A stretch of DNA of 64,000 nucleotides, taken from positions 482-64,481 of the forward strand of contig JAUYMS010000024.1 in NCBI GenBank assembly GCA_030698625.1, in the 5' to 3' direction. This document shows, piece by piece, positions 1 through 20,600 of the stretch. The notes beneath the pieces were generated by a model. It was not told where the DNA came from. It worked only from the letters and a program-made list of their open reading frames with translations, and made no database searches. Numbering within the stretch: the stretch's first letter is position 1; each line of letters starts with the position of its first letter. Source of the DNA: Candidatus Omnitrophota bacterium (GTDB lineage: Bacteria; Omnitrophota; Omnitrophia; Omnitrophales; Aquincolibacteriaceae). The position numbers and the translations under genes were made by a program.

Positions 1-3000
1 CGGCATGTTTTCTTCCCAGGAAGGTTCCTCCCCCCTCGATTTCATGTATGATAATGGCATTTTCAATCACCCGAGCTGCCCTATCCGCTCCAACCCCCAT
101 AACCTTCAACGCCGCAGCAAGGACCCCTCTAGGGTCCTGCCCGGTTAGAACCGCGTGACTTACCAGCCGATGCAGGACAACCGCGTCCCACTCCGTTTTG
201 AGCGTTAAAACAGGGCCGATCTTCCTTCGTAATTCGTCCACATCTTCTTGCAGCTGTCCGGAAATCTCATACTGTGAAACATTGCCGAAATCCTTGACGA
301 CCAGATTCTCGTCAAACCGGCTGAGGATATCTTGCACTCGAGCCTCCCGTGGGCCTTGCGGCTGCGCGGCAGACCCGATAGCCAGCGCTGTTTTGATAAC
401 GTTGTTCCTCTCCTTTTCTGAGAGGACAACGATCTTTTTGTCATCGCCGCGGAACAACTCTTCGAGCCCCTTCATCAGAATCGTGTTGTCCTCACTGGTT
501 AGCATCTCGATCCCCACTGCAAGCACCAGCAACAATGCCTTCCGGTCCTCTTCAAGGGCCCACTGAAGGCTCAAGGCTCTCCTTTTCTTCTCAATAGCCT
601 CCATAACACCTACGATAGAGACGATATTTAAATTGGCCTGCTGCCGCTTTTCGCGTGCGGCACCCGAGGTGTGCATTGCCGAAAAAACATCCTTTGCCCT
701 TTCTAACTTACCGATAATGTCATCATGCTCTGAGGAAGTAAAATTATCACGCCCGCGGAAATCAGTTCCCTCGGCCAGCCATCGCAGCGCATCTCCTTCG
801 GTATCTTCCCTAAGTTCGGATCTTTCGGTACTCTCATCGAAATCGACGGTAACGACGAGGACGTTTTTGCTGGATTTCGGTGCTTCGACGCCCAGATTGT
901 CAGCCTTTTCAACATAGGCGCGAAACTGAGGGGCCTGTGACCGTTCGGCAAAATATTGCATACGAAACATCGTAAGATTGTCGAGTAAAAACTGTTTCAC
1001 CGCAGCGAACCCTTTTTGTTCGTAGAACTCTGCCGGGGGGTCACCAAGGTAGACAACTTCATACTCGCCGGAGCTGAAGTCCTTGCGCCTTGCGAGCACA
1101 ATACTGTCGATCTTGCCCGTCCCAAGACTCTCTTTAGCAAACCGGGAGACTTTGCCCCAATCAGGTGTTATCAGGACGTCGTCATTCTCATTTTCATCCT
1201 GCCTGAGCTCGGAGCGGTTAGCACGATTTTCGATAACGCCATGCGCCTCATATAAACGGTCGTATTCCGTTCTGTTGACGGTAAAAACACCGGTTTGCAT
1301 AACTCCGGCGCTATCCCTGTAAACAATGCTCAAGCCTATGGCGCCTCCGCGTAAGCCTTCAATAGCTTCTCGGGCGATAGGCCGCTCACTACCCTCCCGA
1401 GGCAAGGTCCTGCGCATTCTGACATGCAAAGCGACCGGCGTATCCCTGGCCTTGTCTTCAACCGCCAGGGCCTTATAGTAGTCCGGTCCGTAAATTGCAA
1501 TAATGTCTTGCGGAATAGGCGGTTTTCTTACAGAGCGAGACAAGATCATTTGGAGATTGGGATGAAGGCGGCGGATCGAATGATTGATTTCTTGGATTTT
1601 GTCTTCGAGTGCCTGTGCAGTTATCTCAATGCTCAACCTTTTAAGCTCCTTCACCAAATCATGCTCGGAAACACCGTTGGTCGCCGTGCCCCGTGAGAAC
1701 CTGTAAGCCCGGGCGATTTTCCACCCGGTTTCGTCAAGAGCGAGATTCCACTTCATGCGCAACCTTATTTCACGCAAGCGCTCATTCTCATCTCGGATCG
1801 AAAGCTTCTTTCCCGTATAGCTTGCGCTATGGAGTGCCGCCACAAGATCATCATAGGAGTCGTAACTGTTGATTAATTGCTGATCGAACGCCTTTAACAG
1901 TTGCTGCTCTGCGATTCCCGCAACGTTGCCGACATAGGCCGTCTTATCCGTTAAATAGTACGGGAAATCGAGTAAGTCGTTGACACGATCAAGGGCATCA
2001 AGTATTTCAACTTCCGGATCACCGTTAAAATTTATGTAATCACTCAACTTTTCGATAATTTCGGCAACCGAGGCAACACCTCGCCCATAGGCGACATAGG
2101 TATGTCCCCAAACAATGATTAGATCTCTCGCCATGAGTTCAACACCAAACCGCTCACGTACGCGGGCAAAGGCAAGCGGCAGTATTCCGTGCCCGGATAC
2201 TGAGGCAATCGTTTCCAGGTATTGCTGAGGAGTCGAGCCGTAGTCTTCATCAAAAATCCATTCGGGTTGATCTGCCTCGATGCGTAGAAACGGCAGCAGT
2301 TTTTCATCGATAGCCTCATCAACTTCCGGAGTCGTGAGCTCGCGTCTCGACTCCTTTTGGGAAACCGTTGTCGTTTCTCTAGGTTTCGGCGCCGAGATGC
2401 TGCTCTTCGGTATTCGTGCTTTGGGAGCTGCTACGTGCGCATCGACCGGCACCTCTGCCTCAGATTGAAGCTGTCTATAGGCAGCCGCTCCGTTCAACAG
2501 AGGTTCTAAAACGTCGTCAAATGCGGGGTGCAACTTCCCGATCATCTCCCAGTCATCCGCGTAATCGTTGGCTACCAAAAAGTCCGCCAACACTCTTATT
2601 TTGTCGGCTGCACCTTCATCGTCGGCGCTCTTAAATTTCCAGCCTTCCCACTTTAATTTTGCTGCTATCTCCTGCAAAGAGGGAGTCCGGTCCTGCCCCT
2701 CACCCGGCAGCTGTTGCCAGGCATGAAAAATGGCAACGACATTAGGCTTCAGCTTCCTGGGAACGATTCGAATCGGGGCCCGCTGAAGTTGTGGAGACGC
2801 GTGCCCCATCAACGTGCTGTTAATGCGAACTACAAGCTCTTCAAAACGGCTATCGATGATACCAACCGCATCATCGTGGGCCCCCATGGCCGCAAGACCT
2901 ACCATTATTTCCGGCTTACTCGGAGGCAATTGCTCATTAGTTTGAAGAGCTTGAAAGTAAGCACTCAGGAGCAACCGGGCATGGGCATCGGCCGCTGACA

Positions 3001-6000
3001 ACAACCGCAGGGCTTCTTCTTCGGTAGCGATTGGCAAGGCCTTTGTCTGACGAATGGGATTTTCTAGATATTCATTATTAAGTGCCGCAACTCGGCGACT
3101 CATCACCGGCGGTGTAATAATTGACTCGCCTAGATCTTTGAGCTCCTTGGCTCCGATATAATCGCTCAAACCTCGCAAAAGCGCCGGAAGCGACACATCC
3201 TGCCCATCGGCAATCAGCGCTTGATGCGCCTTGACAAGGGCAAAACTCAGGGGATCGATAAGAATTTCACGAAACTGCCCCAGGGCAACTTCATCCAAGC
3301 TCAAGCTGTATATAAGCGCCACCTCTTCTCCCTCGATTTGATCGCGAATTTGCGCCATGAGCCCAAGGCTGAATTCATACCAGTTTTCTGCGTCGTTATT
3401 CTCCAAATAGCGCAGGGCGATTTTTTGAATTTCTTGTCGAATCACCTGGCGGCGTACATTTTTGTCTGCTTTGGCACGTGTTTCACGGCGCTGGGTAAGC
3501 ACCTGCTTCAGCGAACCGTCCCGCTCGAATCGGTATCCCCGGCTGAATAAGAAGGCCTGCAGATCCCGAGCACCGACACCTTCTCCCAACCATGTCGCAA
3601 GATTCTGCAGGCCGTCGCTCGGGGCAAGCTCTCCCAAATACGGCTCATAAACCAAAAGACTCCTCTGACTCAGGTAGGTAACAACCTTGCTTTGGAGATC
3701 CTGATATCTCTGCTCAATGCGGTCAGCTACCGCATGATAATCACGCACAAACTTATTCGGATTCTCTGCCTTGCGGAACATCTCCCAATAGAAATCTCGG
3801 GCGTCATGCAGCAGCAGCCTTAATGAGAGGCGCTGTTCGTTAGTCATGATGGACTGTTCGTAGCCCTGAACGTTAACTTTGGTTTCGCCTGCGGCATCAA
3901 TAAGTCGTGTCATTTCCTCTTTGGGAAAATCCGAAGGCTCCAGACCGTTCTTCGTTGCCCACACTAAGATGTCAGCCTGCCAGTCCAAATCTCGGAGAAA
4001 ACGGACTAGGGATCGTGTTACCGGTGACCGCCACCCCTGAAGGGCTTCACGCGCTGTGGTTTCGTCAATGTGAACGCCGATGCTGATGCGAGTTGCTAGA
4101 GTCGCAGCATCACCTTCCCGGGCATAATTTGGGTCGGCGGCAATAATGGTAAGCAGGCCGGCTTGTTCAAGCGTGATCTTCTCTGACCGGGCCAATTCAG
4201 AAATGACGTGGAATGCGGGCTCAGTTTTGTCCAGATGAGTTGCGATTCGAGTTTCAATAGCCGCATGAAAATCCGCGTCGGCGTCGGGGAGATCCACGAC
4301 ATGAAGTGAATCAATCTGCCCCCTAATTCTCCCGATCAACGGGCGATCCAAATAATCGTCAATGCGGTCTTTCAAATGCAGCTTGCGTGCTTCCTCACTC
4401 ACAGATCTATGTGTTTTGTGATATTGCTCTTGAAGCTGCTGCAGGCGCTCACGGGCCGCCGCGAGAAAGTCACGGACAATACCGGTCTTCGTCTGCTCGT
4501 CCGCAGACTCGGCAATAGGCGCCATGATTCCGTCGTTCCCATAGTGCGCGCGGGCATAGGCGATGATCGCATCTCCCAGTCGCCTGATCACAGAATCTGT
4601 ATTTGCACGGTTGCCCAAGCCCTGAAGGCCGGTAAGAAAAGGCTTCACTCTGTCGTCCAATCCGCGCTCTCGAACATTGTGGGGAATATCGATATCCATA
4701 ACACCCTGCGCCACAGCGATCTTAAAGGGCCGACTTCGAAAATAGGGCTCTTGTTCAAAGAAATACCTTAACTGATATAAAAACTCGATAAAGGGATCAG
4801 GATTTTTGATGATGGCTTCAAGAGCTCTCTCCGGAAGATCTCGCCCCCAGAAAAGGTGATCGTAAGCACTCCAGAGCGGTTCACTGCGCTTAATCAAATC
4901 ATAGGCCAGAAGTATCTGCCTTTGCGTTTCAGGAGCATAGTGCTCGGCCGTTTTGGATGCGAGGCCTTGGTCCAGCATAACATCGGTGAACGTGTCACGA
5001 ACCGGCACGGAGAGTCGATTCCAGATCACCACATAAAAAAGCCGCCAAACGTCATTGGCGCGCGCCCGTGACTCGCGCAGGTAATCAAGGACTTCATCAA
5101 CCGTCTTCCCGTCGCTCTCCGCAACCATCGACACGCTTGCACTCATAGAATCATCCGTTTCAAAGGAGAGCTCCTCCTGAACACCGTATGTAATCAGATC
5201 TTCGGCGGCAATCTTTGCGGCGAGCTTTTTAACGTTTCGGTAGTCCTGTTCGGCCAACGTCATGATGCCTTCGACGGGAAGATTGTCCAAGAGCTCAAAT
5301 GGCTGGGTATCGCTCTGCAACACTTCTGTGTTAATCCGCGCCAACAAATCCTCCACCTCCGCTTCTTGCCATTCCCTGTCCTCCTCACCCCTTCCCCAAT
5401 TGAGAGCTATCGTCAACTCCTCTTTAGACGGCTCCGCGGCATTTCGTCTTTCGTCTCGAGCACGGAGGCGACGGGGATCCAACTCATCGAACTCGGCCTC
5501 AGATCTTTCCCGATAATTCTCCTTGTAGGCCCGAATGGCATGGTAATGAAGCAGGACAGTATGTCCGCCGTCCATGATGGCCGGATCATAGGCATTGGGA
5601 GGATTCACGGGAATGGTAATGACATCCAAGTCGATCACGGCACCCGGAATCTCGACGGCCGCAGCCAACCTTTCCATCTTTTCACTAAGCGGTGCCCGCA
5701 CCTCAAAATCTACGCGCCCCTCTTTGGCATCAGATATAATCTCAAACTGATCCGCAAATGGCTCAATCGCTTTCAACACGCGGTCATCTTCAATAAACCC
5801 CACGGTCGGAATCTTGGCTATTCGCGTCGCCAAGTCCAAAACATCTTTAATACGGTCACTCTCAACCGCGAGAGCTTTCAGAGCCTGACTGACGGCTTTG
5901 GCATCAACGCCCTGCTTCAGGAGGTCATAACCCATGACAACAGCAAGCAGGATCGCTTGCTCGACAGCCGCTTCGGGAAGCGTGTGGTCTTCAACACCTT

Positions 6001-8608
6001 GAAGCTTCCTGATATCCGCCATAAGCCGCACGGCCAGATTCTTGTTCTGCGTCGCCAGAGATTTCTCAGTTGGGCCCGATTTTGCTGACAAAACCGCATC
6101 TGAATATTTTACAGCTTGCTGAAAATCAGCCAGCGCATCATCGTACCTTCCTTCGGCCATTAATACCTTCCCTTGTTCCCCGTGAAGGGCTGCTAGCTCT
6201 AACGAATCATCTTCAGTTCGCAATTCTGAACGCTGGCTGCCAGGCGATTGCCGGCGCCGAATATAGATCACGACGAGCGTGGGCAGCTTCTTATCCTTTT
6301 TCTTGACGGCGTGTTGTTCAACGGAAAGTTTGAATCGGAATTTTTCGGCGTTCGACACTTGAACTTTCTTCCGTCGTGCCCTAGCGGAGTCTGCCGCTGC
6401 AGACGGAGCACTCAGGTAGGTATCATGCAAGTTTTGGAGGTGCTGCTTCAAGTAGCGCGAAGGCGAGCTGTGGAAGCTCCTCGCCTCGTTGGCAATGTGT
6501 GTGATTTGATCTGAGAATTTCCCGGGCCGATACTCAGATTGTTGCAACATGACCACTTGATCGATTCGACCATTCAACAAGAGGTCACGAGCCTGCTCTT
6601 CGACATCAGCCCAGCTCTCAAGGTCCCATGGCCCCACATCACCTTCGTCCTCATCGGCGGCCCTCAACTCCGATCTGACGGGGCTGGCCTCTCTAAAAAA
6701 TGCCTCGGAGAACAGTCTCGGTCCAGACGCAGTAAAACCGACATAGAATTCACCGCTTCTGACCGCCTGTTGATTGAGCCAGATAATCCAGAGAGGCTGA
6801 CCCTCATGCTCATAGGCCTGATATTTCAGCTGTGCGTGACGCCGATAGGCGTCGTTTCGATTAACTTGGTTTACGCGAGCCGCGAGATTAGCCGGATCTT
6901 GCACAAGACGACGGCTCACGGCACTATTGATTCCAAGAGCGCCATGGTGTGCCTCGCGTTCACCGATAAGGGGTTGTGTCACACTCCCGAGCGGCTGAAC
7001 GCGGGAAAAAAAACGGATATAGGATTTCAACGTATGGCGGTCGCGCGTGAGCGTCATCGCGTCATGGTAATGGTCACTTTCTTCCCGCTGCGGAAGATGC
7101 GGCGTAATACCTACGTAGGAGACATCCTGTGCCTTGAATATGTCCGTAAGACCTTCGGAATGAAATCCGCCGGCCACGAGCACCGCTGCCCCGCTTCCGC
7201 TTGTCTTCATCGCCGACAGGGCATGATCAAACATGGCACGCTCGCGCTTTTTGGCGTCACGATAAAAGGCAAGGGCTTCGTCAAACAGATCCTCCAAAGA
7301 CGATACCGGCACCTGTCCCTCTAACCGTGACTCCATGGCTTTTGGTTTAAGCCCGTCAAGCCTGTCGAGCAGTTCCCGGTAATTAGCAGGAATCAGTTCC
7401 AATCGAAAAAGCTGTTGAAGCAGAAGAAAATCCCGATAGAGGCGGACCAGCTCCGTTTCTTCAGGTTTCACAGCCAGCGCTTCTAGAATCTCATTTCTAA
7501 CGCGAGTTAATTCTTCCATTAATTCCCCCGCATTAAGTTCGCTGCGCAGAATGACGGCACCCGCCATTTTGCTGAAATGGGGATAGTCTTGAAACGAGAA
7601 TCCCTGCCCGGATGTCTCATCATAGAAACGATGAAGGAAATCACGGGGGGTCTCTTCATTCTGCGTGCGCACGGGACTGACCGCAGCAGGTTCAAACTGC
7701 TTCATGCCCGAGGCGAATGAGTCTAGACCATGAATACGGATCCAAGCGGAGATCTCGGCAATTTCTTCCCGGACCCCCTCCGCATTCAAGGCTTCCTCTG
7801 CCTTACGGGCAAGAAACAGCCGAACCAGCTGCGGCCATTGTTGCTGCAAACGTGCATCGGTGAAATCAATCTCCAGTTCTCTCGCTGCATAGACGCGTAT
7901 GACATCAAGGTGACGCATCAATTCACCTGAGACGTCCTCATAAAATACCCATTTCTTGAAAAAGTCGCTCAGCTTCTTATTAAAAACTCGAGAACCGCGG
8001 GTGAGAATCTGTGCTTTTGTCCGGGCCAAAACTGTTTCTGCTGTCGCCGATCGCTCAAGGACGCTTCGAAAAGCACGCAAATTGCGGCGATACAAGCTCG
8101 GGTCTTCCACGCCGAATGCCTGAACCGGATCGTCATCATCGGCCAGCATTTCCTCCAGCATGAAGAGCTCGACACCCCCGATCAATCCGTCACGCGCCAT
8201 ACTTTCGGCGGCATCACGATTCCACTGGGGATCGTCGAAGAATTTGAGAAGTCTCGGGTCCTGTTTACCGAGCCCCCCCTCGACCAAGAGAGTGTTCAAA
8301 CCGTATTCCTTCTTGAGATGAGACAGTATATTCTGGATATTCACCTGGGCCTGATACTGAGAATGGGCATCTTCGATGTAGACGATTAGAGGGGCATTCG
8401 GATTGGCACTATGATATCTCTCTTTGACGGTTCCGATCGAATCAGGGATGGTGATCTTGTCGATGACCGAAACTGTGGGCATTTCTTTTGTGATGGCCGT
8501 CGCTACAACCACACCGGGCGCAGCCCAGGCCACGCTCGTAACGGTGAAGCACAGGTTCACCGCCACGGCAATAACCCGAAGAAATGGTTTTATCCTTTTG
8601 CTTTTCAT
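1..8608 (-). CDS. Giant ORF A, partial (3' end beyond window start). ATG at 8608-8606; at least 2869 codons with no stop in minus-strand frame 1. Has a Sec-type signal peptide (MKSKRIKPFLRVIAVAVNLCFTVTSVAWA/AP) and an N-terminal domain paralogous to gene B ('LIVYIEDAHSQYQAQ', 'VLVAGGFHSEGL'). Downstream modules are separated by 'RSELR' motifs followed by an acidic stretch. Not in the supplied ORF track because no stop codon falls inside the window.
   Basis: I reverse-complemented and translated the region manually, 60 nt at a time, and found no stop from 8608 down to position 1. Every minus-strand ORF listed in the track for 1..8600 is in frame 0 or 2, none in frame 1. The N-terminus aligns to gene B: IPDSIGTVKERY..PLIVYIEDAH..LLVEGG versus LPEDLGYIEERY..PTVIFIQDAH..VALEG, and AAVLVAGGFHSEGLTDIFKAQDVSYVGITP versus KTVVVITGGFHREALAESFRAEGISFAVVTP. 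Confidence 0.8.
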   Translation of the reverse strand, partial: MKSKRIKPFLRVIAVAVNLCFTVTSVAWAAPGVVVATAITKEMPTVSVIDKITIPDSIGTVKERYHSANPNAPLIVYIEDAHSQYQAQVNIQNILSHLKKEYGLNTLLVEGGLGKQDPRLLKFFDDPQWNRDAAESMARDGLIGGVELFMLEEMLADDDDPVQAFGVEDPSLYRRNLRAFRSVLERSATAETVLARTKAQILTRGSRVFNKKLSDFFKKWVFYEDVSGELMRHLDVIRVYAARELEIDFTDARLQQQWPQLVRLFLARKAEEALNAEGVREEIAEISAWIRIHGLDSFASGMKQFEPAAVSPVRTQNEETPRDFLHRFYDETSGQGFSFQDYPHFSKMAGAVILRSELNAGELMEELTRVRNEILEALAVKPEETELVRLYRDFLLLQQLFRLELIPANYRELLDRLDGLKPKAMESRLEGQVPVSSLEDLFDEALAFYRDAKKRERAMFDHALSAMKTSGSGAAVLVAGGFHSEGLTDIFKAQDVSYVGITPHLPQREESDHYHDAMTLTRDRHTLKSYIRFFSRVQPLGSVTQPLIGEREAHHGALGINSAVSRRLVQDPANLAARVNQVNRNDAYRRHAQLKYQAYEHEGQPLWIIWLNQQAVRSGEFYVGFTASGPRLFSEAFFREASPVRSELRAADEDEGDVGPWDLESWADVEEQARDLLLNGRIDQVVMLQQSEYRPGKFSDQITHIANEARSFHSSPSRYLKQHLQNLHDTYLSAPSAAADSARARRKKVQVSNAEKFRFKLSVEQHAVKKKDKKLPTLVVIYIRRRQSPGSQRSELRTEDDSLELAALHGEQGKVLMAEGRYDDALADFQQAVKYSDAVLSAKSGPTEKSLATQNKNLAVRLMADIRKLQGVEDHTLPEAAVEQAILLAVVMGYDLLKQGVDAKAVSQALKALAVESDRIKDVLDLATRIAKIPTVGFIEDDRVLKAIEPFADQFEIISDAKEGRVDFEVRAPLSEKMERLAAAVEIPGAVIDLDVITIPVNPPNAYDPAIMDGGHTVLLHYHAIRAYKENYRERSEAEFDELDPRRLRARDERRNAAEPSKEELTIALNWGRGEEDREWQEAEVEDLLARINTEVLQSDTQPFELLDNLPVEGIMTLAEQDYRNVKKLAAKIAAEDLITYGVQEELSFETDDSMSASVSMVAESDGKTVDEVLDYLRESRARANDVWRLFYVVIWNRLSVPVRDTFTDVMLDQGLASKTAEHYAPETQRQILLAYDLIKRSEPLWSAYDHLFWGRDLPERALEAIIKNPDPFIEFLYQLRYFFEQEPYFRSRPFKIAVAQGVMDIDIPHNVRERGLDDRVKPFLTGLQGLGNRANTDSVIRRLGDAIIAYARAHYGNDGIMAPIAESADEQTKTGIVRDFLAAARERLQQLQEQYHKTHRSVSEEARKLHLKDRIDDYLDRPLIGRIRGQIDSLHVVDLPDADADFHAAIETRIATHLDKTEPAFHVISELARSEKITLEQAGLLTIIAADPNYAREGDAATLATRISIGVHIDETTAREALQGWRSPVTRSLVRFLRDLDWQADILVWATKNGLEPSDFPKEEMTRLIDAAGETKVNVQGYEQSIMTNEQRLSLRLLLHDARDFYWEMFRKAENPNKFVRDYHAVADRIEQRYQDLQSKVVTYLSQRSLLVYEPYLGELAPSDGLQNLATWLGEGVGARDLQAFLFSRGYRFERDGSLKQVLTQRRETRAKADKNVRRQVIRQEIQKIALRYLENNDAENWYEFSLGLMAQIRDQIEGEEVALIYSLSLDEVALGQFREILIDPLSFALVKAHQALIADGQDVSLPALLRGLSDYIGAKELKDLGESIITPPVMSRRVAALNNEYLENPIRQTKALPIATEEEALRLLSAADAHARLLLSAYFQALQTNEQLPPSKPEIMVGLAAMGAHDDAVGIIDSRFEELVVRINSTLMGHASPQLQRAPIRIVPRKLKPNVVAIFHAWQQLPGEGQDRTPSLQEIAAKLKWEGWKFKSADDEGAADKIRVLADFLVANDYADDWEMIGKLHPAFDDVLEPLLNGAAAYRQLQSEAEVPVDAHVAAPKARIPKSSISAPKPRETTTVSQKESRRELTTPEVDEAIDEKLLPFLRIEADQPEWIFDEDYGSTPQQYLETIASVSGHGILPLAFARVRERFGVELMARDLIIVWGHTYVAYGRGVASVAEIIEKLSDYINFNGDPEVEILDALDRVNDLLDFPYYLTDKTAYVGNVAGIAEQQLLKAFDQQLINSYDSYDDLVAALHSASYTGKKLSIRDENERLREIRLRMKWNLALDETGWKIARAYRFSRGTATNGVSEHDLVKELKRLSIEITAQALEDKIQEINHSIRRLHPNLQMILSRSVRKPPIPQDIIAIYGPDYYKALAVEDKARDTPVALHVRMRRTLPREGSERPIAREAIEGLRGGAIGLSIVYRDSAGVMQTGVFTVNRTEYDRLYEAHGVIENRANRSELRQDENENDDVLITPDWGKVSRFAKESLGTGKIDSIVLARRKDFSSGEYEVVYLGDPPAEFYEQKGFAAVKQFLLDNLTMFRMQYFAERSQAPQFRAYVEKADNLGVEAPKSSKNVLVVTVDFDESTERSELREDTEGDALRWLAEGTDFRGRDNFTSSEHDDIIGKLERAKDVFSAMHTSGAAREKRQQANLNIVSIVGVMEAIEKKRRALSLQWALEEDRKALLLVLAVGIEMLTSEDNTILMKGLEELFRGDDKKIVVLSEKERNNVIKTALAIGSAAQPQGPREARVQDILSRFDENLVVKDFGNVSQYEISGQLQEDVDELRRKIGPVLTLKTEWDAVVLHRLVSHAVLTGQDPRGVLAAALKVMGVGADRAARVIENAIIIHEIEGGGTFLGRKHA

Positions 8609-8671
8609 AAATAGTGAATCGGGGGGACGCGGCCGGTGCCACCAGATCCGAGTGACCTGGTATGTCGGGAT

Positions 8672-8688
8672 AGGAACATCCTGTTCCT
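8672..8688 (-). other. Stem-loop AGGAACA-tcc-TGTTCCT (7-bp stem, 3-nt loop) in the 90-nt spacer between gene B's stop and gene A's start. No U-tract follows it on the transcript strand, so it is not a canonical intrinsic terminator.
   Basis: A perfect inverted repeat read directly from the sequence, 11-27 nt downstream of B's TAA on the minus strand. Confidence 0.45.
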
Positions 8689-8698
8689 GTCCGTGGCG

Positions 8699-11600
8699 TT
8701 ACGCCGAAGCCGCGATCTCGCGATGGGACGCAGCCATAAGCTGCAAGAGGGTTGTCAATATGGTGATTCCTGTGGAAACATCATATTGAACGGAGCCGGC
8801 ATACCTCTCCAGTGCCTTATCAAGAGCTTGAGCCGTTATCTCCGCAGTTTCAGTCGTGCTGAGAAACTGCGCTAGCGGAGGAACTAACGACATACTAAAG
8901 GCAAGAGGTACACCGTTGCTGCGCACGATACGCTGTCTCGGCACTGATCTACTCAGAGCCAGCCACCTATCATGGGGAAAGAAAATCCCGTATGCGTCCG
9001 CAAACTTCTGGTTACCAATAACACGTTGATCGAGCTGCTTGGTAAGCTCAACCCATTGTGAATCTGTCCCGTCTACCCAATACAAAGAATCTCTAACTAA
9101 GTTCTGAGCCGCGGCCTTCTGTTTTGACAGCGCACTCAGGAAATCACCCTTCTGCTTCTTCTCCTTATCAGAAAAAACAATATGAAACTGAAAATCCTTA
9201 ACATCTAAATTCGGTTGGCTGTCCACCGCTTCGTAGACGCGCGCGACAAAAGAGAGTAATTGCTCCTTGATTTCCGGCGAATAAAAGATGATGGGAGTTA
9301 GCTGCTTGACTTCCTGGCGCTGAATCGCATCGACTAAGCGGTCCAGCGAAGCACGAAACTCCTCCCGGGCAATTTGATTAAACTGCTGGGGGCTGAAGCG
9401 GTGCTCCTTTAGAACTGTTCCGGCGTACGCGTATGCCTCGCGGGTAGATCCGGAGAACTGCTGAGCGGCAGCTGTGCGAACAAAGAGGTGATCAAAAATC
9501 AAAAGCCGATAAGAGGCGCGGAGGCCGTCTGCGAAACCCGCCACTCCGGTATCAGAATTGGCGACGTTCTCTACGGTAAGCGCTGAGGTGCGTGCAATGA
9601 CGACGGGGCTCGGCGAAACAATCCCGGCAGCAACTTCTGCAATGGCCCTCAACTCGGAACGCTGATCTCCTGCCTTAGGCGCTGGCTTCGCTATCGTCAG
9701 GGTGTTTTCAGCTTCCTCATCTAACGGATTGCGTATGATCTGAAGCAACATCGTTCCTGGTTCACCCGCCTTTTCAACGACGGCAAAGGCAGTATGCGCC
9801 TCAATCGTCTCATTTCCGTCCGTAACCTGAGGAATAATGAGTCCGTCACTGGGCTTTGAAATATCGATAATGGCCACGGGATGATTGTTTTCGTCGTCGA
9901 TAATGTAGTCAAAGATCGGAGTCATGTGCCCGGAATCTGCGACGCCGGTAGGTCCCACGATGTCCGCAATTTCCCGCCTGACCTGGAATACCGCCGCTAA
10001 ACTCCTTCCGGGAAGTTTTCGTACGATGAGGGCCGGGCCTTTCGCCTCCCGACCTCCGATTAGAAGCAATCCATGCGCCGGTAGCCCGTCAGCCGCTATC
10101 TTGGGCCATATTTTCGTCTGCCCACCCTTACCGCGACCACCCAACCGCGTTATTCCATATCTTTTGTCTGCACCCCTACGATAGGCGCCATTCCACTCCG
10201 GAAAACGAATACTTGTGACATCTTCTTGGGTTTCTATGGCTTCCCAATTTAAATCCCACGGCTCTTCCACAGAGTCCGGAGTCATTCCCGGCTTAAGCCG
10301 ACCAAGCCACGTCCGTTCACCGGCCTCATCCACATGGATGATCGTAATCGATGTCTCCTCGGCATCGCCCTCAAGATCCATTTCCTCGTCAAATTCAGTA
10401 TCGATATGTCCCGCGCTTAAGCGGTTCGGAAACTTTTTGCCGTGGCGGCCGATGAAGAGCTCAATCGCGCGCGTCTGATCCGCCGCAAACTCGTCTTGAA
10501 TTTCGTCCCCAAGTTTTTCGCTGAGATACTCACGGATGCGTCGAACAACGCTCGAATCCAGAGAGCCTCCGAGCGCTATCGCTTTACGCGAAGCCCGGTA
10601 CTTCCCGAGAAAATCTCGATTCTCTTTTCGTGTGCCGCCCGCGCTGTGTTGAAAATTCAATATGCGCCCTTCCAATAGCGGAAGTGCCTTGGGGTCCGCA
10701 AGCTCCCAAAGAAATTTCACGAGGTGTGCATAAACCTTCTGATTTACAAGCGTGGTAGCGATTTCAAGATAGCGGCCCGACTCCTTAAGGCCGGCAAAGC
10801 GTTGCTGCAGCCTGTCCAAGCCGACAAACGCAAGCTCCAAGCGATTTTCATCGCTCAGGCCTTTAATTTCGGAGACGAGAGCATCCAAATGGGCATGAAG
10901 TCTGAGCTGTAAGAGTGTGGTAATATCGGCGGGCGCCAAGCCTGAGTCTTGCACGAGGTGCGCATTCACCCAAATGGTCTTATTATCCTCATCCACGATG
11001 ATGTCCGAGGAAAAGTGCTGCATTCCTTCCTGAATCATGACGAATGTATAGCCCTTTCCATCACTGAAGTTGGCGGGATTTTTGAGTAACTGCATCAAAT
11101 CATGATCGTCGGTGATATCGTCGGGAACCGGTTCGGGTTGAGGCAGAACTTGGGGACGGCCACCTCGGGGCTGTCCGCCTGTGGCTGCTGGTTCTTCGAC
11201 GATGACACGGCGGCCTTCATTATTCATATCAGAAAGTGTCCGCCGCAAGAGGTCAATCACTTCAACGTCAAGCTCATTGGCAAATGGATCCCATTCTGGA
11301 TTATCTCCGAAGCGCACATTCAGGATTTCGCCCAGAACGCTTTCAAGATAGGCTGCTTCGGGATTCAAGTCGATCATCTGATGAATTTTACCGGTAATTT
11401 GGGGCACCGCACCTATGTCCGGATGGGCTGTCGAAATGAGCCCTTTAAGCTCCCCTTTTAGTCTCAGGAGCTGCACCTCTTCCGAACGTAATTCCACCGC
11501 ACGCCTATTGATGCGCGTAACCCTATCTTCAATCCAGGCGTTCAGGCTGCTCGTCGGGTCTCCCTGATCCCCATCATCGGTGGGCGGATGAATGTGTATC

Positions 11601-14600
11601 ACGTCCGCACCGCTTCGTGTCAGGCTATGGCGTCTGCCGCTTCGTATCTCATAGCCATCCCAGGGGAGCCTGCTTAATCTTTCCGGACTAAGGTCGACGT
11701 CAACATTCGTCCTCTTTGCCAGCACGAATGAACTCTGCGTCAGAACCTTACGCAATCTGGCCGGAATACCCTCTAGGTTGAGCGTGCCGAATCCGTTATG
11801 AACGACGGTCATTCCGTAGTTCTCCTCAAGAAAAGTTCTCGCCGCTTCGGTCATGTCACCGTTGTGAAGAAAGAGCAACACATAACCATCCTTCTTCGTA
11901 TGCTGCACGAGTTGTTTCAACATATAATTGCGCTGGCCTACGTAGAGTTTCGGAATGTCCGCTTCCGTAATTCCTGCGGGAATACGGTCGAGTACCATAT
12001 TCAGTAAGCTCCTCTCCGCCCTCGGCAGGGCTTCCGGCACGCGAGCTCTGTGCTCTCCCCGCAAACGCCTGCGGATAATATCCTCCAGAATTCTGCGCTG
12101 TTCCGGCGTTAGATCCGGAGGAATGATCGGTTGACCATAATGCCAAAGTTCGGAACCTATGGTCAACTGCGCCACTTCGGGCTCCAAATCATCCAAGACG
12201 AGGTTCTTATTTATGTAATCAACGTTCGTAACACCCCGGTTATCCAAGTTCTTGTGCGCTAAATCCAGCATAGCTTGGGAGAAATCCACTAGGTTATAGT
12301 GCAGGTCATTGATCTTGAAATCACCCGTCGGTGAAAGATTTGCCATGATACGACGAACCTCGTACCAGCCGAGAAGATCTGTGGCCGGTCCTGAGGGCAG
12401 AAAGCTAACCGTATCCCCCTTCGACAATTCAATCTGTCCGGTCGTCTGTAGTTCTACAAGGTAACGCAAAAACATCTGCCCCAAAGGATACGCAGCCAGC
12501 CGCGTAATTTTTTCGGAATATTCTTTGGCAAAGCGGTCCCACATGTCGCGTACGGTATTCCAGTCACCCGTCCGCATTGCCACTGAGTAAATGCGTTCTA
12601 AGTTTGCGAGTAATCGTAACATTTTGTCGCGCTCGCGCGACGCGTCTTGAATCGCTTGATAACTGCTGACTTCAAGTTGCTCGTCATCCACAAATCCGTC
12701 CAGGGCCTGAAGCAACATGTCGCGTTTCGTACCCACAAGAGGAATTGCGCGGGTCGCTTCCCATGTATTCGGCGCATAATACTGACGAATGTGAATTTCG
12801 TCGGCGGACTGACCACGCCGGTAAATGCGCGAGATCACCTGCTCACGTCTTGCATCGGTTAGCGGAGAGTCAACGATGTAAATTGCATCAGTGGGCTTCT
12901 CCTCGGAGCCGACGACGTCGAAACCTTCCCCGCCGGAGCCCGCCATCGCTAGAAGTATCTCCTTATCCGGAGAATCATGATCCGTGTGTCGATTAAAGTT
13001 TTCGATGGTAGCATACCGAAGCGGTCCCGTGACCGGTTCGTTGTGGTCAGGCTTCTGTAGTGTTGCGATAAATTCCTGTCCGAGGCGCCGTTGCACCATG
13101 CGGCGAATACGTGCCATGGGCTTCGGAAATGTGGCTGTATTGTAGTCCGCATGCATGACAATAGCCCGGAAGTCACGCAGGGCTTGTTCCTGACTGACCG
13201 GTTTCGTTGCGACAATCCTGCGGCCGATAACGCTTTCGAGATAGGGCTGCGCCTTGTGTTCAACTCTCCGGACGAGGTCATCCTCGGCAACTAAATCCTT
13301 GCTTATCGATTGAATAACACGCTGAATTGAAGCGACGGGAATACCGAGTTCGCTAACATCCGATACTTCCGAACGACCCGCCAGGACGCGCTGCAGTCTC
13401 AGGACCTCCGCCTGTCCGCGTTTCTGGGCCACCAATTCATGAATACGCCGCAAGATGGCGTGAAAATTACTAACGGCAAAGACTTTACTGTCAGGATGAG
13501 TACTACGGTGGTTAATAAGATCAGTAGCCACCGCGTCGAGGCGCGCAGGCGAAGTAAAGGCATAGGGGAAATTGGGATTCGTCGAGGGATCCCCATAGGG
13601 ATTGGGGGGCCCCCAGGATTGCCTGTCATGAGTCAACTCCCTTATGGCTTCGGCAATAATTCTGTCGATACTTTCTTGAACACGAGGATTGATCTCGAGT
13701 TGATCCTGAAGCGATGGCAGTGCTTCCTCCAGACGCAGCAGTACAGCCTCAAGCGTCGCAGGATCAATTCCTAACGCATCCAAATCCAAGCTTCCTAACT
13801 GAAGTCGGGTAATTTTTCCAACGCGTTGCTGGTTATCCGCCGTATTCAGGAGGTCCCTGTCGAGATATTCATAAACTGCCTGCTGAAGGTTATCACCGGC
13901 CGGTGTCAAACGTTGTTCGAGACTCACTTCTACGAACTCGGTATCGAGACGCTCGGGCAAATTATCGCCCAGGACCTGTTCGCGCGACCTCCGGATAATA
14001 ATACCACGCCTGCGCAAATCAAGATTTAGAGCGACGCGCCCCGCAACACCTTGATAACGCCGACCGAACCCGCGTTGGGAGGCGGCCAGATTCGAAGCGC
14101 CGTTCAGCTGCTCGGGGTATTCCTCCGGGTCCAGCAGATGCAGCAAAGGATAAAGATCACCGACGGAGTTTACTAGCAATGTCCCCGACAAAAGCAGGAT
14201 ACGCTGTTCAGGGCGCGTACTGCGCATTGAGATCAGTGTTTTTGTCTCCGAATTCGTCGCATTCTTAAAGCGGTGGGCCTCGTCAACGATAATGAGATCG
14301 GGTCCCTGATCAGCCCCGCCCCAGTTCCTGAGCTCTTCGGCCAGAACGTCCTTTTGCTGACGCGTATCCCCGTCCCATTGAATATCTTGACCCGTCGCCA
14401 AAAAATTGTAATTGATCATAACAAAGCGCGCCCTGTTTTTGGCGTAAAGCAATCTCTGCATGCGCGTCGAGTTGCCGTAAGCACCTGAATAATCGGCATC
14501 GATAATCACATAGAGATCCTTTTTCGGACGCTCTCCCTCGGGAAGCTCCTGTAGCCCATCAGCAATTCGTCTCTCGCGGTTCCAATCCTCCTCAGTCATA

Positions 14601-17600
14601 CTGTTCCAATCAACCGCACTCAGATCAAGCCTTTCGGTGTTCGGTAACCATGACTGGATATGCTTTTCTTCCCAATTGTTGAGCACGCCATTGGCGGCAA
14701 TTAGGAGAACGCGTTGGTTACGTTGATTTTCCGATGCCGTCTTCAAGGCCTGCTGCATCATAATATCTTTAGCAACCTGCGCAACGCCGAGCGCTTGCAC
14801 CGATTTACCGAGACCCGGCTCATCGCCGATGAATCCCCGCAGGGTCCTTACTCCAAAGTCAATTCCCTCATGCTGATAGAGCTCTAACTCCTGCTTGATA
14901 CTCGTGCCGGGCTTTACTGCGTTGACATGACTTTGGTACTTGGCTTGTTTGAGATCGTTATAATGCCGTCTTAATTCTGTGTAGACAGTGACATTGGCTT
15001 CGGCTTTTGCCAAACGCAACTGAAGCGCTCCGTCCTCCGAAGCAGTTTGTTCGCGACGAACGGCATCAACTTCAGTCTGCCACTGCGCGCGTCCCGCCTC
15101 GGCCCATTCGATAGCGATCTCCATCGCCTGTTCGGCCGGCGTCCCGCCCTTGCCATTGGCTTCGTCGGCGGCCGCTGCCATCAAATCATTCGCAATCCTC
15201 TCTCTTATCTGTGCAAGTAGAATATTCTTTGTACTGTCATTCTGAAAAAAGAGGTAAAAATCATTCTCCAGATGTTCAATCCGGCCACGGCTGTACGATG
15301 TCGGTTTCCGACTCTTCCTGCCGTTAAGTTGCTGACGGAATTTTTCGGTTAGAAGTTGCATCAGTTGATCTTCGGCCATCTGCGGATTGGCTGCCGACAG
15401 CAAAAACCAGAACCCTGCGCGGTCGGTCTCGAAGAGATCGAGCCATTCATCCATATTAATGGTACGCGTCAGTTGCCGGAAGAGATCGCGGTTGGTCTCG
15501 TCGACTGTTTTTTCCAGACGTCTCTGCCTCTCAATCGCGCCAAAACCCTCGTATTGCCTAAAGCCCGTATCGTGTAGGAGCAATTGCACCGCCGTCTCAT
15601 AAATGCGGTCGGGACCCGCTGCGGCGGATACGTAATCTCGATTGACAACTTCTGCCTCGTACACCGCAATGAGAGACTCCAGGTTCTGATCCCCCAGGAT
15701 CGGCTGCTTAAAATTGCTTCGGTTCCGGAGAAGACCGTCCATGTCGGTGTCAGCTTGAGACATGAGATAGAGCAAGAGCGTACGTATCGCGTCGCGACTG
15801 ATGATCCTCTCATCCTGCCACGGGGCTTCGGCAAGATTGGAGAGCCACCTCTGACTGGGATCAAGCAGCTGTGTCCGCAACTCGGAGCGAGCCGGTAAAT
15901 TCCTGAACACCCGGCTCAGTTGTTCGCGAGTTAGGGCATCATCACCGGCCAGCTTAGCGATGCCGGATACAAGCCTCCTCTTACCAGAGACATACTTTGC
16001 CAATTCTGCTGCCGCAACACCGCCGATCCTTCTGTTGACACCACGTTCACCGGGCTTCCCCTTTTCCCAGTAACCAACCGTTCCTGACTGCACGGGTCCG
16101 CCGAGCGCCGCATAGATCACGGCTTCATGAAGTTCGGAATTGCTCAGATTAAGTGCGCGCGCAACTAAGAAAGCATTATCTAAGAAGTTACTTCTCAACT
16201 TACCTGCAACGACTGGCGTAATGTTGCCGTGAGGAAAGTTTGCCCTTTTAATAGCGGCTTCGACGGCGGCTTCAAGGGCTTGGTTGGCTTCATGAAAGAT
16301 CGGTTCCATTTGGATCAAACTAAGATTGGGTACCCCAAGAATACGCGCCACCGCTGCGGCATCCGTAACTTCATTTCTCGGCAATGCTGTTCCTAAGAGG
16401 AATTGTGCTAACTTCGCCGCGTCCTCCCAGGTAATGGTCGCAATAGGGTTACTGCTCCACCAGCGTCGTGCTTTCGCCACGGGGAGGCCCACAGCTCGGG
16501 CGATATCCTCAACGCCCAGTCCAAACTCCCTCGCTACCGCTTGCGTATTGGCCAGAAAATGGCGATTCGCCCGTATCGTATCGACATCTTCCCTCACCAA
16601 GCGGTGAGAGCCTCGCCTGTAAAGCCATCGTCCGGGCGGCGTGATAACTTCTCGCAAGCGCCTTTCGGCCGCAATGTCCCCGTCGGTCGGCTCGTCCCTG
16701 CGTGCCAAAGCCGAAGGTGCCGGCTCGGGAGCCTCTCCAAAACTCGCATAGATCTCTCTGAGTTGCGCCGTCCCGATTGACGTGTCACCGTATATCTTGG
16801 CTACCGCGCGGACACCATTCGCTTCCCCTGTGACGTATTTAGCGAGTTCCGAGACGAAACCCCACGCCGCAACAGGATCTTCATGCGTGCCGTCCCTGCG
16901 GTCCAATCCGTTTGCCCAGTAGTAGGACGAGGTCGTACGAAGCGCCTGATTGATCTCTCCGTGCGTAATACTCAGCACCGGCGTCACGCGATAGATATTC
17001 CCAAGGACACGCTGTTTAAAACGTTCTGCGGATGCAACCGTAATATTGCCGGGATTGAACTGGGCCGCCGGCAAAGGCGTCGCTTTATCCCGCACGGCTT
17101 GGTCAACTTCCTTTTGAGCATCTGTAAAGACTGCCGCAAGCTGGCGCACACTCAATCGCCGGATACCGACGAGCCTTGCCACCGCTGCCCGGTCATCGTA
17201 AGCGGCTTCATCCTCGAGGAGGTACTTGGCAAGCTTGACCGCATCGTCCCAGGAAATCGTGACATGTTCGTTTCCTTCATAAGTCCACCAGCGCGTGATT
17301 TTCCCGAAAGCTATGCCTGTCTCGGCCGCAATGTCGCGGCTCGCCTGCGTGACTTCGTCTTCGCCCCAGAGGGCTTTAACAACCGCAAGCGCATTGCGAA
17401 TAAAATGGCGGTTAGCGCGCTTCTTATCTATGGAAGCGACGGTATATTGGTCCAGCCATGCCTTCGGATTCTCAATTGTGCGGTTCAGATCGACCCCTGC
17501 GCGCAATTCCGAACGCTCACCAAAATCCGAGAACACCTGTTCAAACTCCGCACGGCCAAGGCTACTGTGCCCTGCGAGTGTGGCTACGGCGCGAATCTGT

Positions 17601-20600
17601 TGCTTGCTTGCCGAGACATACTGTGCGAGCTCGGCTATATAAGCCCAGCTTATGCTCGGATATTCCCACTCGCCATCCTTGCCCGGCTTACCTTTCTGCC
17701 AGTAATTTGCCGTCGTCGTATCCAAGGCTTCGTTTATTTCAGGATTTGTGATACCCAACTGCGGGGTGACACGGAACACGTTCTGCAGCGCGTGCAGTTT
17801 TAAACGGCGGGCATCTCCGTTCTCGACATTACTGGCATCAAAGAGAGAGTACGGCAGGTCGAGGGTTTGCTCGGCCACAATGGTCTTGATCGCATCTCTG
17901 GCACCGTCGAAGATGGGCGCCATTTGGATGAGGCTCAGGTTCGGTGCCCCGATCATGCGCGCCACAGCAGCCGCATCCGTATAATTCTTTTCGATACGAA
18001 GCAGATAGCGGGCAAGCTTTGCAGCATCCTCCCAGTTAATGGTCGCTATGGGGTTGTTCCACCAGCGGCGGACTGTCGCCACATGCACGCCCACAACATC
18101 GGCGATTTCCTGATCGTCGATCTCCAGGTTGTCGGCAACGCGACCTGCATTTTCAAGAAAATGTTGATTCGTCTTGATCGTGTCGGCATCCTGCTTGACA
18201 AGACGATTCGATCCTTTTCGGAATAAGCCACGGGCCGGCTCACGAATCCCGCTGACCTGGGCCACATCCCCCTTGGGCAATCTTTCTCTCGCCCGCCTGA
18301 AGATGGCCGCGATCTGGGCACGAGAGAGTGATGTGTCCCCGAATAGATAAGCCAGCGAACGGTAATAGCTGGTCGCCTCTGGATACCCGGTCAGAGCCAA
18401 CTTGGCCAGTTCTCGGGCATATTCGAGGTCAATACTGCGATAGACAGTACCTTTCTTACCCTTCTTCCAGTAATCCACTGTCCCCGTGCTTCCGGCGCCG
18501 GTGGTCTGACGTATTTCTTCATAGCTGTAATGATTCCCGATCATCCAAAAGGCGTTATCCAAAAAGAGATTCCGTGCCGTTTTGGCTTGTTCGATCGTAA
18601 GATTATCAAGATCAACGACTTCCCCACGCTTCGCGAAGTAATTTTGTAAGGTAGTCGGCTGTTTGACGAGATCCCCGTCTTCGGCCTGGGTCCTGAGCTC
18701 TGAGCGCGTAGGAAAAGCCGCAAACACTTCGCTTAATTCCGCATGCGTCAGGTTCTCGTCGCCGGTCAGAGTGGCGGTTGCCGACACAGCCAGCTTCTTT
18801 CCGGTAATATACTTTGCCAACTGAGCTGCATAGGGCCCGCGAATCGTTCGCTTGGCACCTTTCTCACCGGGTTTGCCATTTTCCCAGTAACCTACTGTTC
18901 CTGATTGGGCCGGTCCGCCCATGGCGATATGGATCACGGCTTCATGGATTTCGGCGTTACTCATGTTCAGTGCCCGCGCTGCGAGAAAGGCATTGTCGAG
19001 AAAGTTACTTTTCAGCTTTCCGGCTGCAGTCGGCGTCAGAGGATCCCGCTTAAAGTTAACGGGTTTAACAGTATCGGCGATAATCTGATTAATGACCTTA
19101 TTGGCTTCGTGAAAGATGGGTTTCAGCTGAATCAAACTCAGACGCAGCGCACCGAAGATTCTTGCAACCGCTTGCGCGTCGGTGAAGTCGCCCGATTCGT
19201 CACGCAAAAGCCGTTGAGCCAATTTTGCGGCATCCGCCCATGTAATCGTGGCAATCGGATTGGCCCACCAACGGCGAACCGTCGCAACGTGAACACCGAC
19301 GAGATCGGCAATTTCCTGATTATCAATTTCGAGGGCTTGAACAAGCGCATAGGTATTGGCAATAAAATGGCGATTGACCTCGACTTTTCTATCACCGATA
19401 TCTTCCGCGAGAATCCGTTTCGAACCAGGTCTGAAAAATTCATCAGCTGGTCTTTCTATAAGTCTATTGATATTGACTGGCCCATCGGCGGCGGGCGGTG
19501 CCGGTCTCGATTTAGCAGGCGATTTCACGACCGCGGGCTGCCGTGTCTGCGGCGTAGGCATTTGGTCGTCACGCGGAAAATCACGCCATATCCGGCTCAA
19601 CACATTTGCATCAATCGTGTCATCGCCCGCCATTTTGGCAACGGCTACGACCGGGTCCACTTCAGCGGAGACATATTTCGCGAGCTCGGAAGCAAAACCC
19701 CAGGCAATGACAGGGTCCTCATGGGTGCCGCCCGGGCGGTCCAATCCGTTCTGCCAATAATAGGCAGACGTGGTATTGAGCGCATTATTAATTTCATAGT
19801 GCGTCACCTTTAAGGCGGGAGTCATTCTGTAAATATTGCTGTAGACATGCTGTTTGAAGCGCTCCGCCAATTCCGGCGTAATCTCATTGCGGTCAAAATC
19901 AATGCCGCTAAGGGGCTGCACTAATTCTTGGGCAACCTCATCAATAACGTTCTTCACTCCCGTAAAGATGGGCGCTAATTGTCTCAAACTCAGGCCTTTA
20001 TTACTCGCCACGCGCGTCCCGAGAATACGTGACACCGCGGCCGCAGGTTCATAAGCGAATTCGCTTTCCAAGAGGACGAGCGCCAGAATAGCTGCATTGG
20101 CAAAAGTAATAGTCGCGGCGGGATCCGTTCTCCAGAACGACACCGTACTAGGCGTAATTTCTTCGTCAAGCGTTGCAAAACCGTCCACGATATCCACATT
20201 CCGAATGCCTAAGGCATCGGCAACGCGAAACGCATTCTTCAGGAAGTGGCGGTTGGCCTTGTTACCGTCAAGCGTGCCGAGGTCATAGGGCTTGAACCAT
20301 TTGCCCGGTTTCTTGATCACCCTGCTGAGATTGACCGTCTCGACATCTTCGCCCCTGAGTTCCGATCGGGCCCGAAAGCCCGGATACCTTAAAAGAAAGT
20401 CGGGTCTTAAAGATTGCGTGCGGAAGACCGCAAGAATCGTTCCAGCCGGTACGGCTTCGGCAAACTGGTTGGTAGGGCTGCTCAAGATGCGCGCCACTTC
20501 AGCTTCCGTGAGCCTATCCTGCTGATCCAAAATATTGATTCGTTCGATGAAGCGTTCCAGATTCGCGGACCACTTCTCAGTGAAACGCGTGATCAGATCA

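Follow-up and report, generated by a model that had tools for sequence, protein, structure and literature searches.

The region between positions 8609 and 8701 of a 64,000-nucleotide (nt) stretch of Candidatus Omnitrophota DNA (contig JAUYMS010000024.1; the whole stretch is hereafter called the window) separates two very long genes on the minus strand, here called B (upstream) and A (downstream). It is very probably an ordinary intergenic boundary between two separate co-oriented chromosomal genes. The initial annotation had singled out this junction because A and B lie in one reading frame, and had weighed tandem paralogues, a single gene split in two, and stop-codon readthrough or translational coupling. 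When the sequence was read again, all of its underlying observations were recovered, that is, the same frame, the TAA at 8701-8699, the 30 stop-free codons and the 7-base-pair (bp) hairpin at 8672-8688. After the TAA, the 90 nt from 8698 to 8609 (minus strand) can be read as 30 sense codons in the frame of B, RHGQEQDVPIPTYQVTRIWWHRPRPPDSLF, which lead to the ATG of A at 8608-8606 in the same frame; no in-frame ATG, GTG or TTG was present within this spacer. The features of the junction are as follows.

8699-22357, minus strand: gene B, complete coding sequence (CDS) including the stop, 4552 amino acids (aa), ATG start, from the open reading frame (ORF) list and its translation
8699-8701, minus strand: TAA stop codon of B, read from the sequence
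8609-8698, minus strand: intergenic spacer of 90 nt, 60% GC, open in all three frames
8672-8688, minus strand: 7-bp hairpin AGGAACA-GGA-UGUUCCU, without a U-tract, present in the minimum-energy fold
8640-8662, minus strand: second predicted hairpin, 9 bp including G-U pairs, 5-nt loop, minimum-energy fold
1-8608, minus strand: gene A, 5' portion of its CDS, 2869 aa or more, continuing past the left end of the window

The evidence for two genes comes mainly from relatives of the two proteins, which share a common N-terminal module (N-module) of approximately 520-650 aa. A profile made from the N-modules of A and B was used in a HMMER search of 1.84 billion cluster representatives (50% identity clusters), and 8,471 clusters were found at an E-value (E) of ≤0.001 and 2,794 at E ≤1e-30, with proteins of 500-7,984 aa; Omnitrophota accounted for almost all of the 8,471. 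All family statistics given here refer to the 150 best of these 8,471 matches (P0001-P0150). In every one of the 150 the N-module was located at the protein start, and an internal position was never seen. At the other end, homology searches (phmmer and iterated hidden Markov models) with the last 315 aa of B (C-module) matched the very C-terminal ends of P0022, P0081, P0056, P0082 and 10 more proteins; all 14 matches reached the final residue, and internal copies were absent from the 150 best family proteins. Alanine was the terminal residue in 106 of 138 long family proteins (ending in ASA, SAA, KAA, QAA, RSA or AMA, with ASA the commonest), and the tail of B, ...IAASA, fits this habit. In genomic DNA, the N-module match was preceded in 80 out of 80 loci by an in-frame stop at a distance of 108-345 nt (median 180); the equivalent distance for A, calculated from coordinates in the window, is about 231 nt. 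In addition, the N-terminus of A pairs with that of B residue for residue from Met1, and its start, MKSKRIKPFLRVIAVAVNLCFTVTSVAWA-AP, aligns with the Met1 region of B and with the conserved ...AWSAP ends of the family. Judged by these alignments, B stops at a native family C-terminus and A opens at a native family N-terminus.

Tandem arrangements were also observed elsewhere. A one-genome-per-species scan detected 278 relatives, nearly all in Omnitrophota and several per genome; this was achieved with a six-sequence alignment, a two-sequence alignment having given no relatives and a 23-sequence alignment being too divergent. Several Omnitrophota genomes contained at least five family genes, on different contigs. 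At 11 loci in relatives, a same-strand gene with a family-like C-terminal tail was found upstream, with a gap of 106-1285 nt, and 8 of the 11 upstream ORFs also carried the separator motif described below or marks of the N-module. Three of the 11 pairs shared a frame, as many as chance would give, and in all three the spacer contained stops in that frame.

L006, L012, L028, L030, L031, L038, L047, L052 and L080 (loci in relatives): head-to-tail family pairs, in any frame; gap of 556 nt in L080

As far as these sequences go, tandem placement of family genes recurs in relatives whatever the frame. The NCBI annotation of the window also has two consecutive CDSs, MDP3919809.1 (B) and MDP3919808.1 (A). 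The comparison with relatives, of the kind that the initial annotation had proposed for orthologous loci, indicated two genes by the N-module starts, the C-module ends and the upstream stops alike.

The shared frame together with the stop-free spacer is a coincidence in a short GC-rich spacer. No stop occurred in frame in 42% of the spacer shuffles, and in combination with a shared frame (1/3) the joint probability is approximately 0.14. Because all three frames of the spacer are open, the openness of the B frame is uninformative. The 7-bp hairpin begins 10 nt 3' of the B stop; a perfect stem of at least 7 bp was present in 3.1% of the spacer shuffles and in 2.5% of the 90-nt tiles of the window, and the fold z-score of the 131-nt junction region was -1.69 versus shuffles. 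In the predicted fold, both hairpins fill the 5' two-thirds of the spacer and the start region of A is left unpaired. A scan of 8300-9000 against Rfam gave no match, and thus no recoding element. Neither an intrinsic terminator nor a sigma-70-like consensus promoter was found in 8300-9300; the sequence that comes after the hairpin is CCUAUCCCGAC, and the hairpin was rejected as a Rho-independent terminator because it has no U-tract.

With regard to expression, co-transcription of B and A is likely and is the simplest reading, since no promoter or terminator signal was found between them. Transcription would start in the 313-nt region upstream of B, which is shared divergently with lpxA; a consensus promoter scan of this region detected sites on the plus strand only and none for B. 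The spacer hairpins would be at most an element of mRNA stability, processing or weak attenuation, and might act by stabilising or processing the transcript or by attenuating read-on into A. As the initial annotation had stated, no obvious Shine-Dalgarno sequence precedes A (no GGAGG-like sequence upstream of ATG 8608). Such sequences appeared to be weakly used across the window, being missing from many housekeeping genes and from B itself. From 12 nt before the ATG of A onward, the mRNA is unpaired and A/U-rich in the minimum-energy fold, and A is likely translated by independent, Shine-Dalgarno-independent initiation at this stretch, as far as the predicted fold can indicate.

Among the alternatives, translational coupling survives best. 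It proposes that ribosomes finishing B restart at ATG 8608, and it would add to the two-gene reading. The same orientation, the gap of only 90 nt and the absence of any detected Shine-Dalgarno sequence, promoter or terminator between B and A speak for it. However, many genes of this window, even first ones like B, do without a Shine-Dalgarno sequence, the unpaired A/U-rich region around the ATG suits independent initiation, and the tandem gaps in relatives reach 1285 nt. Moreover, for classical termination-reinitiation coupling a gap of 90 nt that contains two hairpins is a long one. On balance we consider coupling unlikely.

That one giant gene was recently duplicated in tandem and its copies then diverged is less probable still, and we would give this little credence. 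The two genes are indeed neighbours in the same orientation with the same N-terminal module, and the initial annotation had pointed to the duplication of a gene of more than 13 kb, with its N-terminal domain architecture preserved, as notable. However, the alignment between A and B was limited to residues 4-518 of A (24% identity, E 5e-26), and the remainder was unrelated, including the regions behind the N-module (cargo). The N-modules of A and B are just 24-26% identical, and that of A is nearer to P0008 (37%) than to B. The cargo of A is collinear with P0008, whereas that of B is collinear with P0022, a family member distinct from P0008, and each related genome contains several dispersed family genes. 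Thus, neither the giant duplication nor the preserved whole-gene architecture survived, only the first ~520 aa being alignable. The earlier lean toward tandem paralogues, which was based on the signal peptide of A, was right in assuming two independent genes and wrong in assuming whole-gene paralogy, as only the N-module is common. The low identity of the N-modules, the different cargo and closest collinear members, and the presence of several genes per genome indicate that A and B are old family members that happen to lie next to each other; by sequence, they are not a recent whole-gene duplication.

It is highly improbable that a single ORF of more than 7400 codons was broken at 8699-8701, whether by mutation to a stop codon or through an error in sequencing or assembly. 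Such a split would agree with the common frame, with 30 intervening codons that contain no other stop, and with the fact that the TAA could not be checked against another assembly. Nevertheless, the end of B coincides with the end of 14 homologous C-modules and with the Ala tail, the 30 spacer codons RHGQEQDVPIPTYQVTRIWWHRPRPPDSLF resemble nothing in the family, the signal-peptide-like start of A aligns with Met1 of B, and an internal N-module is absent from the 150 proteins and 80 loci; with three open spacer frames, the open frame itself tells nothing. This part of the initial annotation was therefore abandoned, because in relatives the N-module is never internal and the C-module is always terminal. 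Programmed readthrough of the TAA to give some B-A fusion protein, perhaps stimulated by the stable hairpin 10 nt past the stop (a 7-bp stem arises in only ~3% of shuffles), can be dismissed with similar firmness despite the shared, open frame, because the frame is not conserved in tandem pairs (3/11, each with spacer stops), in the fusion a signal peptide and another N-module would end up in mid-protein, an arrangement never seen in the family, no Rfam recoding element was detected, and TAA, recognised by both release factors, is the least leaky bacterial stop; neither readthrough nor coupling gained support from the tandem junctions of relatives.

Several observations weigh against the two-gene interpretation and its corollaries. 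The exact look-up of the B protein in assemblies gave no second record, so that the TAA has no independent confirmation; a search of metagenome contigs with the junction pattern carrying NNN at the stop gave 0 matches, and the 90%-identity clusters of A and of B have one member each. The 7-bp hairpin is mildly non-random (p ~0.03). At three of the tandem loci (L005, L012 and L028), the upstream ORFs were counted on the C-terminal tail alone, and that of L005 ends in ...AAG. No promoter for A was found within 8300-9300, and its transcription would start in the region upstream of B. Finally, the deposited A ends in ...MVREWCYP near the contig end without a canonical C-module, and its closest homologue, the collinear P0008 (5918 aa), runs on to a canonical ...ISASA, A ending earlier. 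Because of the missing C-module and the early end relative to P0008, A may be truncated, frameshifted or degenerate, or naturally short, as judged from its sequence.

The start of A also deserves comment. The deposited MDP3919808.1 (hypothetical protein) is 2973 aa long and begins at a GTG that lies 14 codons after ATG 8608; counted from the ATG, A would have 2987 aa and, on the basis of the deposited protein, would end ~355 nt outside the window. The NCBI start (window 8564-8608) drops the Lys/Arg-rich beginning of the signal peptide, and when A is aligned with B and with further family members, ATG 8608 is the better candidate. A Pfam scan of A gave almost no match. Its parts are listed here.

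6674-8608, minus strand: N-module of A, residues 1-645, signal-peptide-like start MKSKRIKPFLRVIAVAVNLCFTVTSVAWA; IEDAH, VEG, GVED and GGFH motifs
6662-6676, minus strand: RSELR motif 1 of A, residues 645-649
6218-6232, minus strand: RSELR motif 2 of A, residues 793-797
1202-1216, minus strand: RSELR motif 3 of A, residues 2465-2469
809-823, minus strand: RSELR motif 4 of A, residues 2596-2600

B is identical to MDP3919809.1, annotated as 'SNF2-related protein' of Candidatus Omnitrophota. It is composed, in this order, of a signal peptide, the N-module, three modules containing a helix-turn-helix (HTH), a large SNF2/methyltransferase-like module and the C-module.

20363-22357, minus strand: N-module of B, residues 1-665, signal-peptide-like start MIKKIISTMTLIAFCAAEVIFNPMQAAYA
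20354-20368, minus strand: RSELR motif 1 of B, residues 664-668, directly after the N-module
18692-18706, minus strand: RSELR motif 2 of B, residues 1218-1222, end of HTH module 1
17501-17515, minus strand: RSELR motif 3 of B, residues 1615-1619, end of HTH module 2
15875-15889, minus strand: RSELR motif 4 of B, residues 2157-2161, end of HTH module 3, where collinearity with P0022 resumes
13949-14878, minus strand: SNF2-related helicase domain of B, residues 2494-2803 (Pfam PF00176, E 2.4e-15)
9647-9661, minus strand: RSELR motif 5 of B, residues 4233-4237, directly before the C-module
8702-9646, minus strand: C-module of B, residues 4238-4552, ending ...REIAASA, by homology to family C-termini

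Residues 669-2161 of B (15875-20353) consist of three paralogous HTH-containing modules (669-1222, 1223-1619 and 1620-2161), each ending in RSELR and also matched by Pfam. Segments 669-1222 and 1620-2161 can be aligned from end to end with 48% identity, both ending at the motif. The whole three-HTH block is absent from P0022, a shorter B-like homologue, and the breakpoint lies exactly at a motif. The region behind the SNF2 domain looks methyltransferase-like from a reading of its sequence and its collinearity with P0022; no Pfam methyltransferase family was matched in B at E ≤0.01. Across the family, the C-terminal modules fall into several sequence clusters.

The recurring pentapeptide is a property of the family and not of this window only. 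A has four copies of exact RSELR and B has five, versus 0.02 expected, and the codons of the motif differ at each copy, for which reason a DNA-level repeat was rejected as its origin. The pattern R[SA]E[LVMIAT]R was found at 650 sites in the top 150 family proteins, with up to 24 per protein versus ~0.1 expected. The median spacing was 289 aa, and the first copy was usually located right after the N-module, at residues 550-780. Ser, Ala and Pro abound in front of the motif and acidic residues behind it, and the 19 residues of B that run into the first motif (647-665) had a predicted local distance difference test score (pLDDT) below 50 in the model described below. In related loci, motif density was 0.78 per 1000 aa in ORFs with an N-module versus 0.035 in other complete ORFs, a 22-fold difference. 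The contents of the segments agree with a role in delimiting units: in P0013, DUF218, Methyltransf_4 and Pyr_redox (Pfam) each occupy their own motif-delimited segment, and the Rossmann start of Pyr_redox is located 9 residues past a motif. On this sequence evidence, R[SA]E[LVMI]R motifs mark module boundaries, and the family architecture is a signal peptide, a TIKI-like N-module, motif-separated variable cargo and a C-module that usually ends in Ala. A literature search with the motif string yielded nothing but the varSelRF software and a motif of PL7 alginate lyases, both unrelated.

A clue to the nature of the N-module was provided by an AlphaFold model of residues 1-665 of B, built with an alignment of 18 family sequences (pLDDT 82.3; predicted template modelling score (pTM) 0.74). 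The model contains an a/b core (strands 62-68, 76-82, 108-111, 160-163, 463-469 and 486-492) interrupted by a helical insertion of ~290 aa (167-458) and followed by a helical tail of ~150 aa. A parallel beta-sheet a/b fold, as expected for the TIKI/TraB/Ere/ChaN superfamily, was present in the model, and its structural kin were as follows, each entry with its score.

TraB family protein: 8bqs_DQ, 9.8
Bcr135/136 (Ere-like): 2rad_A, 9.6, and 2qgm_A, 8.4
Effector HopBA1: 5t09_A, 9.2
RRSP, an endopeptidase of MARTX toxins: 5w6l_A, 8.8
ChaN: 2g5g_X, 8.6
EreC: 6xcq_A, 7.8

In the N-module alignment, D82-A-H84, E112-G113, G163-x-E165 and G469 were invariant, and G470 and H472 (GGFH) near-invariant, with H472 kept in at least 90% of sequences. 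Active members of the superfamily have a 2His/2Glu set, for example E3900, H3902, E3930 and H4030 in RRSP, and H85/E113 in Bcr135 (PMC6254334). In the model, D82-x-H84, E112 and H472 come in the expected order near strand ends, with Asp as the first acid; the Asp-x-His after the second strand, the Glu after the third and the late GGFH His may parallel that set, whereas the first acidic residue is Asp and not Glu. Other differences from the superfamily are the all-helical insertion and the helical tail, which only the N-module has, and the fact that the domain invariably follows a signal peptide and opens a giant multi-module protein. On the basis of this model, the N-module appears to be fold-level kin of the TIKI/TraB/erythromycin-esterase superfamily with a plausible active site and not a sequence-level member; it was filed in this way because no Pfam, NCBIfam or PDB-sequence profile detects it. 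It is less certain that it is an active hydrolase of this superfamily, as the model may suggest. A number of results argue against these assignments at the family and activity level: the N-modules of A and B gave no Pfam match at E ≤0.01; 23 core segments gave no match to TraB_PrgY_gumN, Erythro_esteras or Cofac_haem_bdg in Pfam at E ≤10; no NCBIfam model was hit, nor were PDB sequences by the A and B profile; and the superfamily also holds non-protease members (ChaN) and esterases (Ere). A word-index homology search with the N-module of A gave no match at E ≤0.001, and a tblastn search of plasmids with the N-module of B gave none and no sign of a plasmid-borne relative.

Taking the motif and the N-module together, R[SA]E[LVMI]R sites between modules are candidate processing sites, although this reading of the sequences is less certain than their role as boundaries. 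Each gene would encode a secreted polyprotein that is cut at R[SA]E[LVMI]R so that the cargo is freed as separate proteins, and the cutter could be the N-module, in cis or in trans, or a dedicated partner protease. The candidate substrate stretch for cleavage by the N-module of B is FPTRSELRTQAEDG. The cargo would be interchangeable (helicases, methyltransferases, oxidoreductases and HTH proteins) and might include effectors delivered into host or prey cells. An Omnitrophota-wide secreted polyprotein system in which the motif is the cleavage site of the N-module or a partner protease is a tentative proposal, which by our own estimate is more likely wrong than right. The motif could alternatively serve as a signal for docking or export, or as a structural linker.

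A and B were deposited on one 64,645-nt contig of a Candidatus Omnitrophota metagenome-assembled genome. Between 22.6 and 53 kb of the window lie the housekeeping genes lpxA, fabF, rpsA, tyrA, aroF, hisC, pheA, scpAB, trpS, uppP and dxs. A third giant ORF is located further along.

53572-63957, minus strand: third giant ORF, at least 3461 aa, probably continuing past the right end

This ORF is coiled-coil-like and rich in Glu, Lys, Ala and Arg, contains no RSELR and appears to stand outside the family of A and B.

In summary, the B/A junction is a normal gene boundary; it represents neither recoding, nor a gene split in two, nor a giant duplication, and the interest of the region sits in A and B as ordinary-sized members of an 8,471-cluster family. 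This family is apparently undescribed, no domain model and no mention in the searchable literature having been found; a search for Omnitrophota together with polyprotein retrieved nothing relevant. The separator motif offers rational unit boundaries for structure prediction and expression of such proteins, and its co-occurrence with a hydrolase-like module provides a testable idea on whether Omnitrophota giants act whole or cut.

Giant genes of Omnitrophota were the subject of a 2023 preprint by West-Roberts et al., which describes Archaeovorin-type and dockerin-type genes and puts forward C39 or S8 peptidase domains as the agents of cleavage, the cleavage points being unknown according to its authors (bioRxiv 10.1101/2023.11.21.568195). 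A second preprint catalogues proteins of at least 10,000 aa (bioRxiv 10.64898/2026.06.07.730766), and both raise the question whether giant proteins are cut into pieces (bioRxiv 10.1101/2023.11.21.568195; 10.64898/2026.06.07.730766). A term search of the two preprints gave no such separator motif, cleavage site or N-terminal module. A and B resemble the described giants in belonging to the same phylum and in being very long, multi-enzyme and mostly signal-peptide-bearing; on the other hand, at 3-4.5 kaa, that is, thousands of aa (A ~2987 aa, B 4552 aa), they fall under the size cut-offs of both studies. A Pfam scan found no C39 or S8 peptidase domains in A or B, and multiple transmembrane helices were not found in either. 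Assignment to the Archaeovorin-type or dockerin-type giants was rejected, as A and B are too small and the defining Pfam domains are absent. If the cleavage idea is true, the motif would supply the missing cleavage points of Omnitrophota giant proteins.

Two further systems offer a comparison. Viral polyproteins also consist of one ORF with many units delimited by a short motif and a hydrolase-like module in the same chain, whereas A and B are cellular chromosomal genes with housekeeping neighbours and a signal peptide, and processing is only predicted here. In MARTX toxins, a built-in protease cuts the linkers between modules and frees the effector modules (PMC6254334). In contrast with MARTX, Pfam found no RTX or glycine-rich repeats and no C80 cysteine protease domain in A or B, entry would be through a Sec-type N-terminal signal instead of a C-terminal type I secretion signal, and the modules are separated by a strict pentapeptide, R[SA]E[LVMI]R, at which cleavage is a prediction. 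Like these toxins, however, A and B are giant secreted bacterial proteins with a variable string of unrelated enzymatic modules, and the combination of a built-in hydrolase-like module with a conserved inter-module motif suggests a MARTX-like logic.

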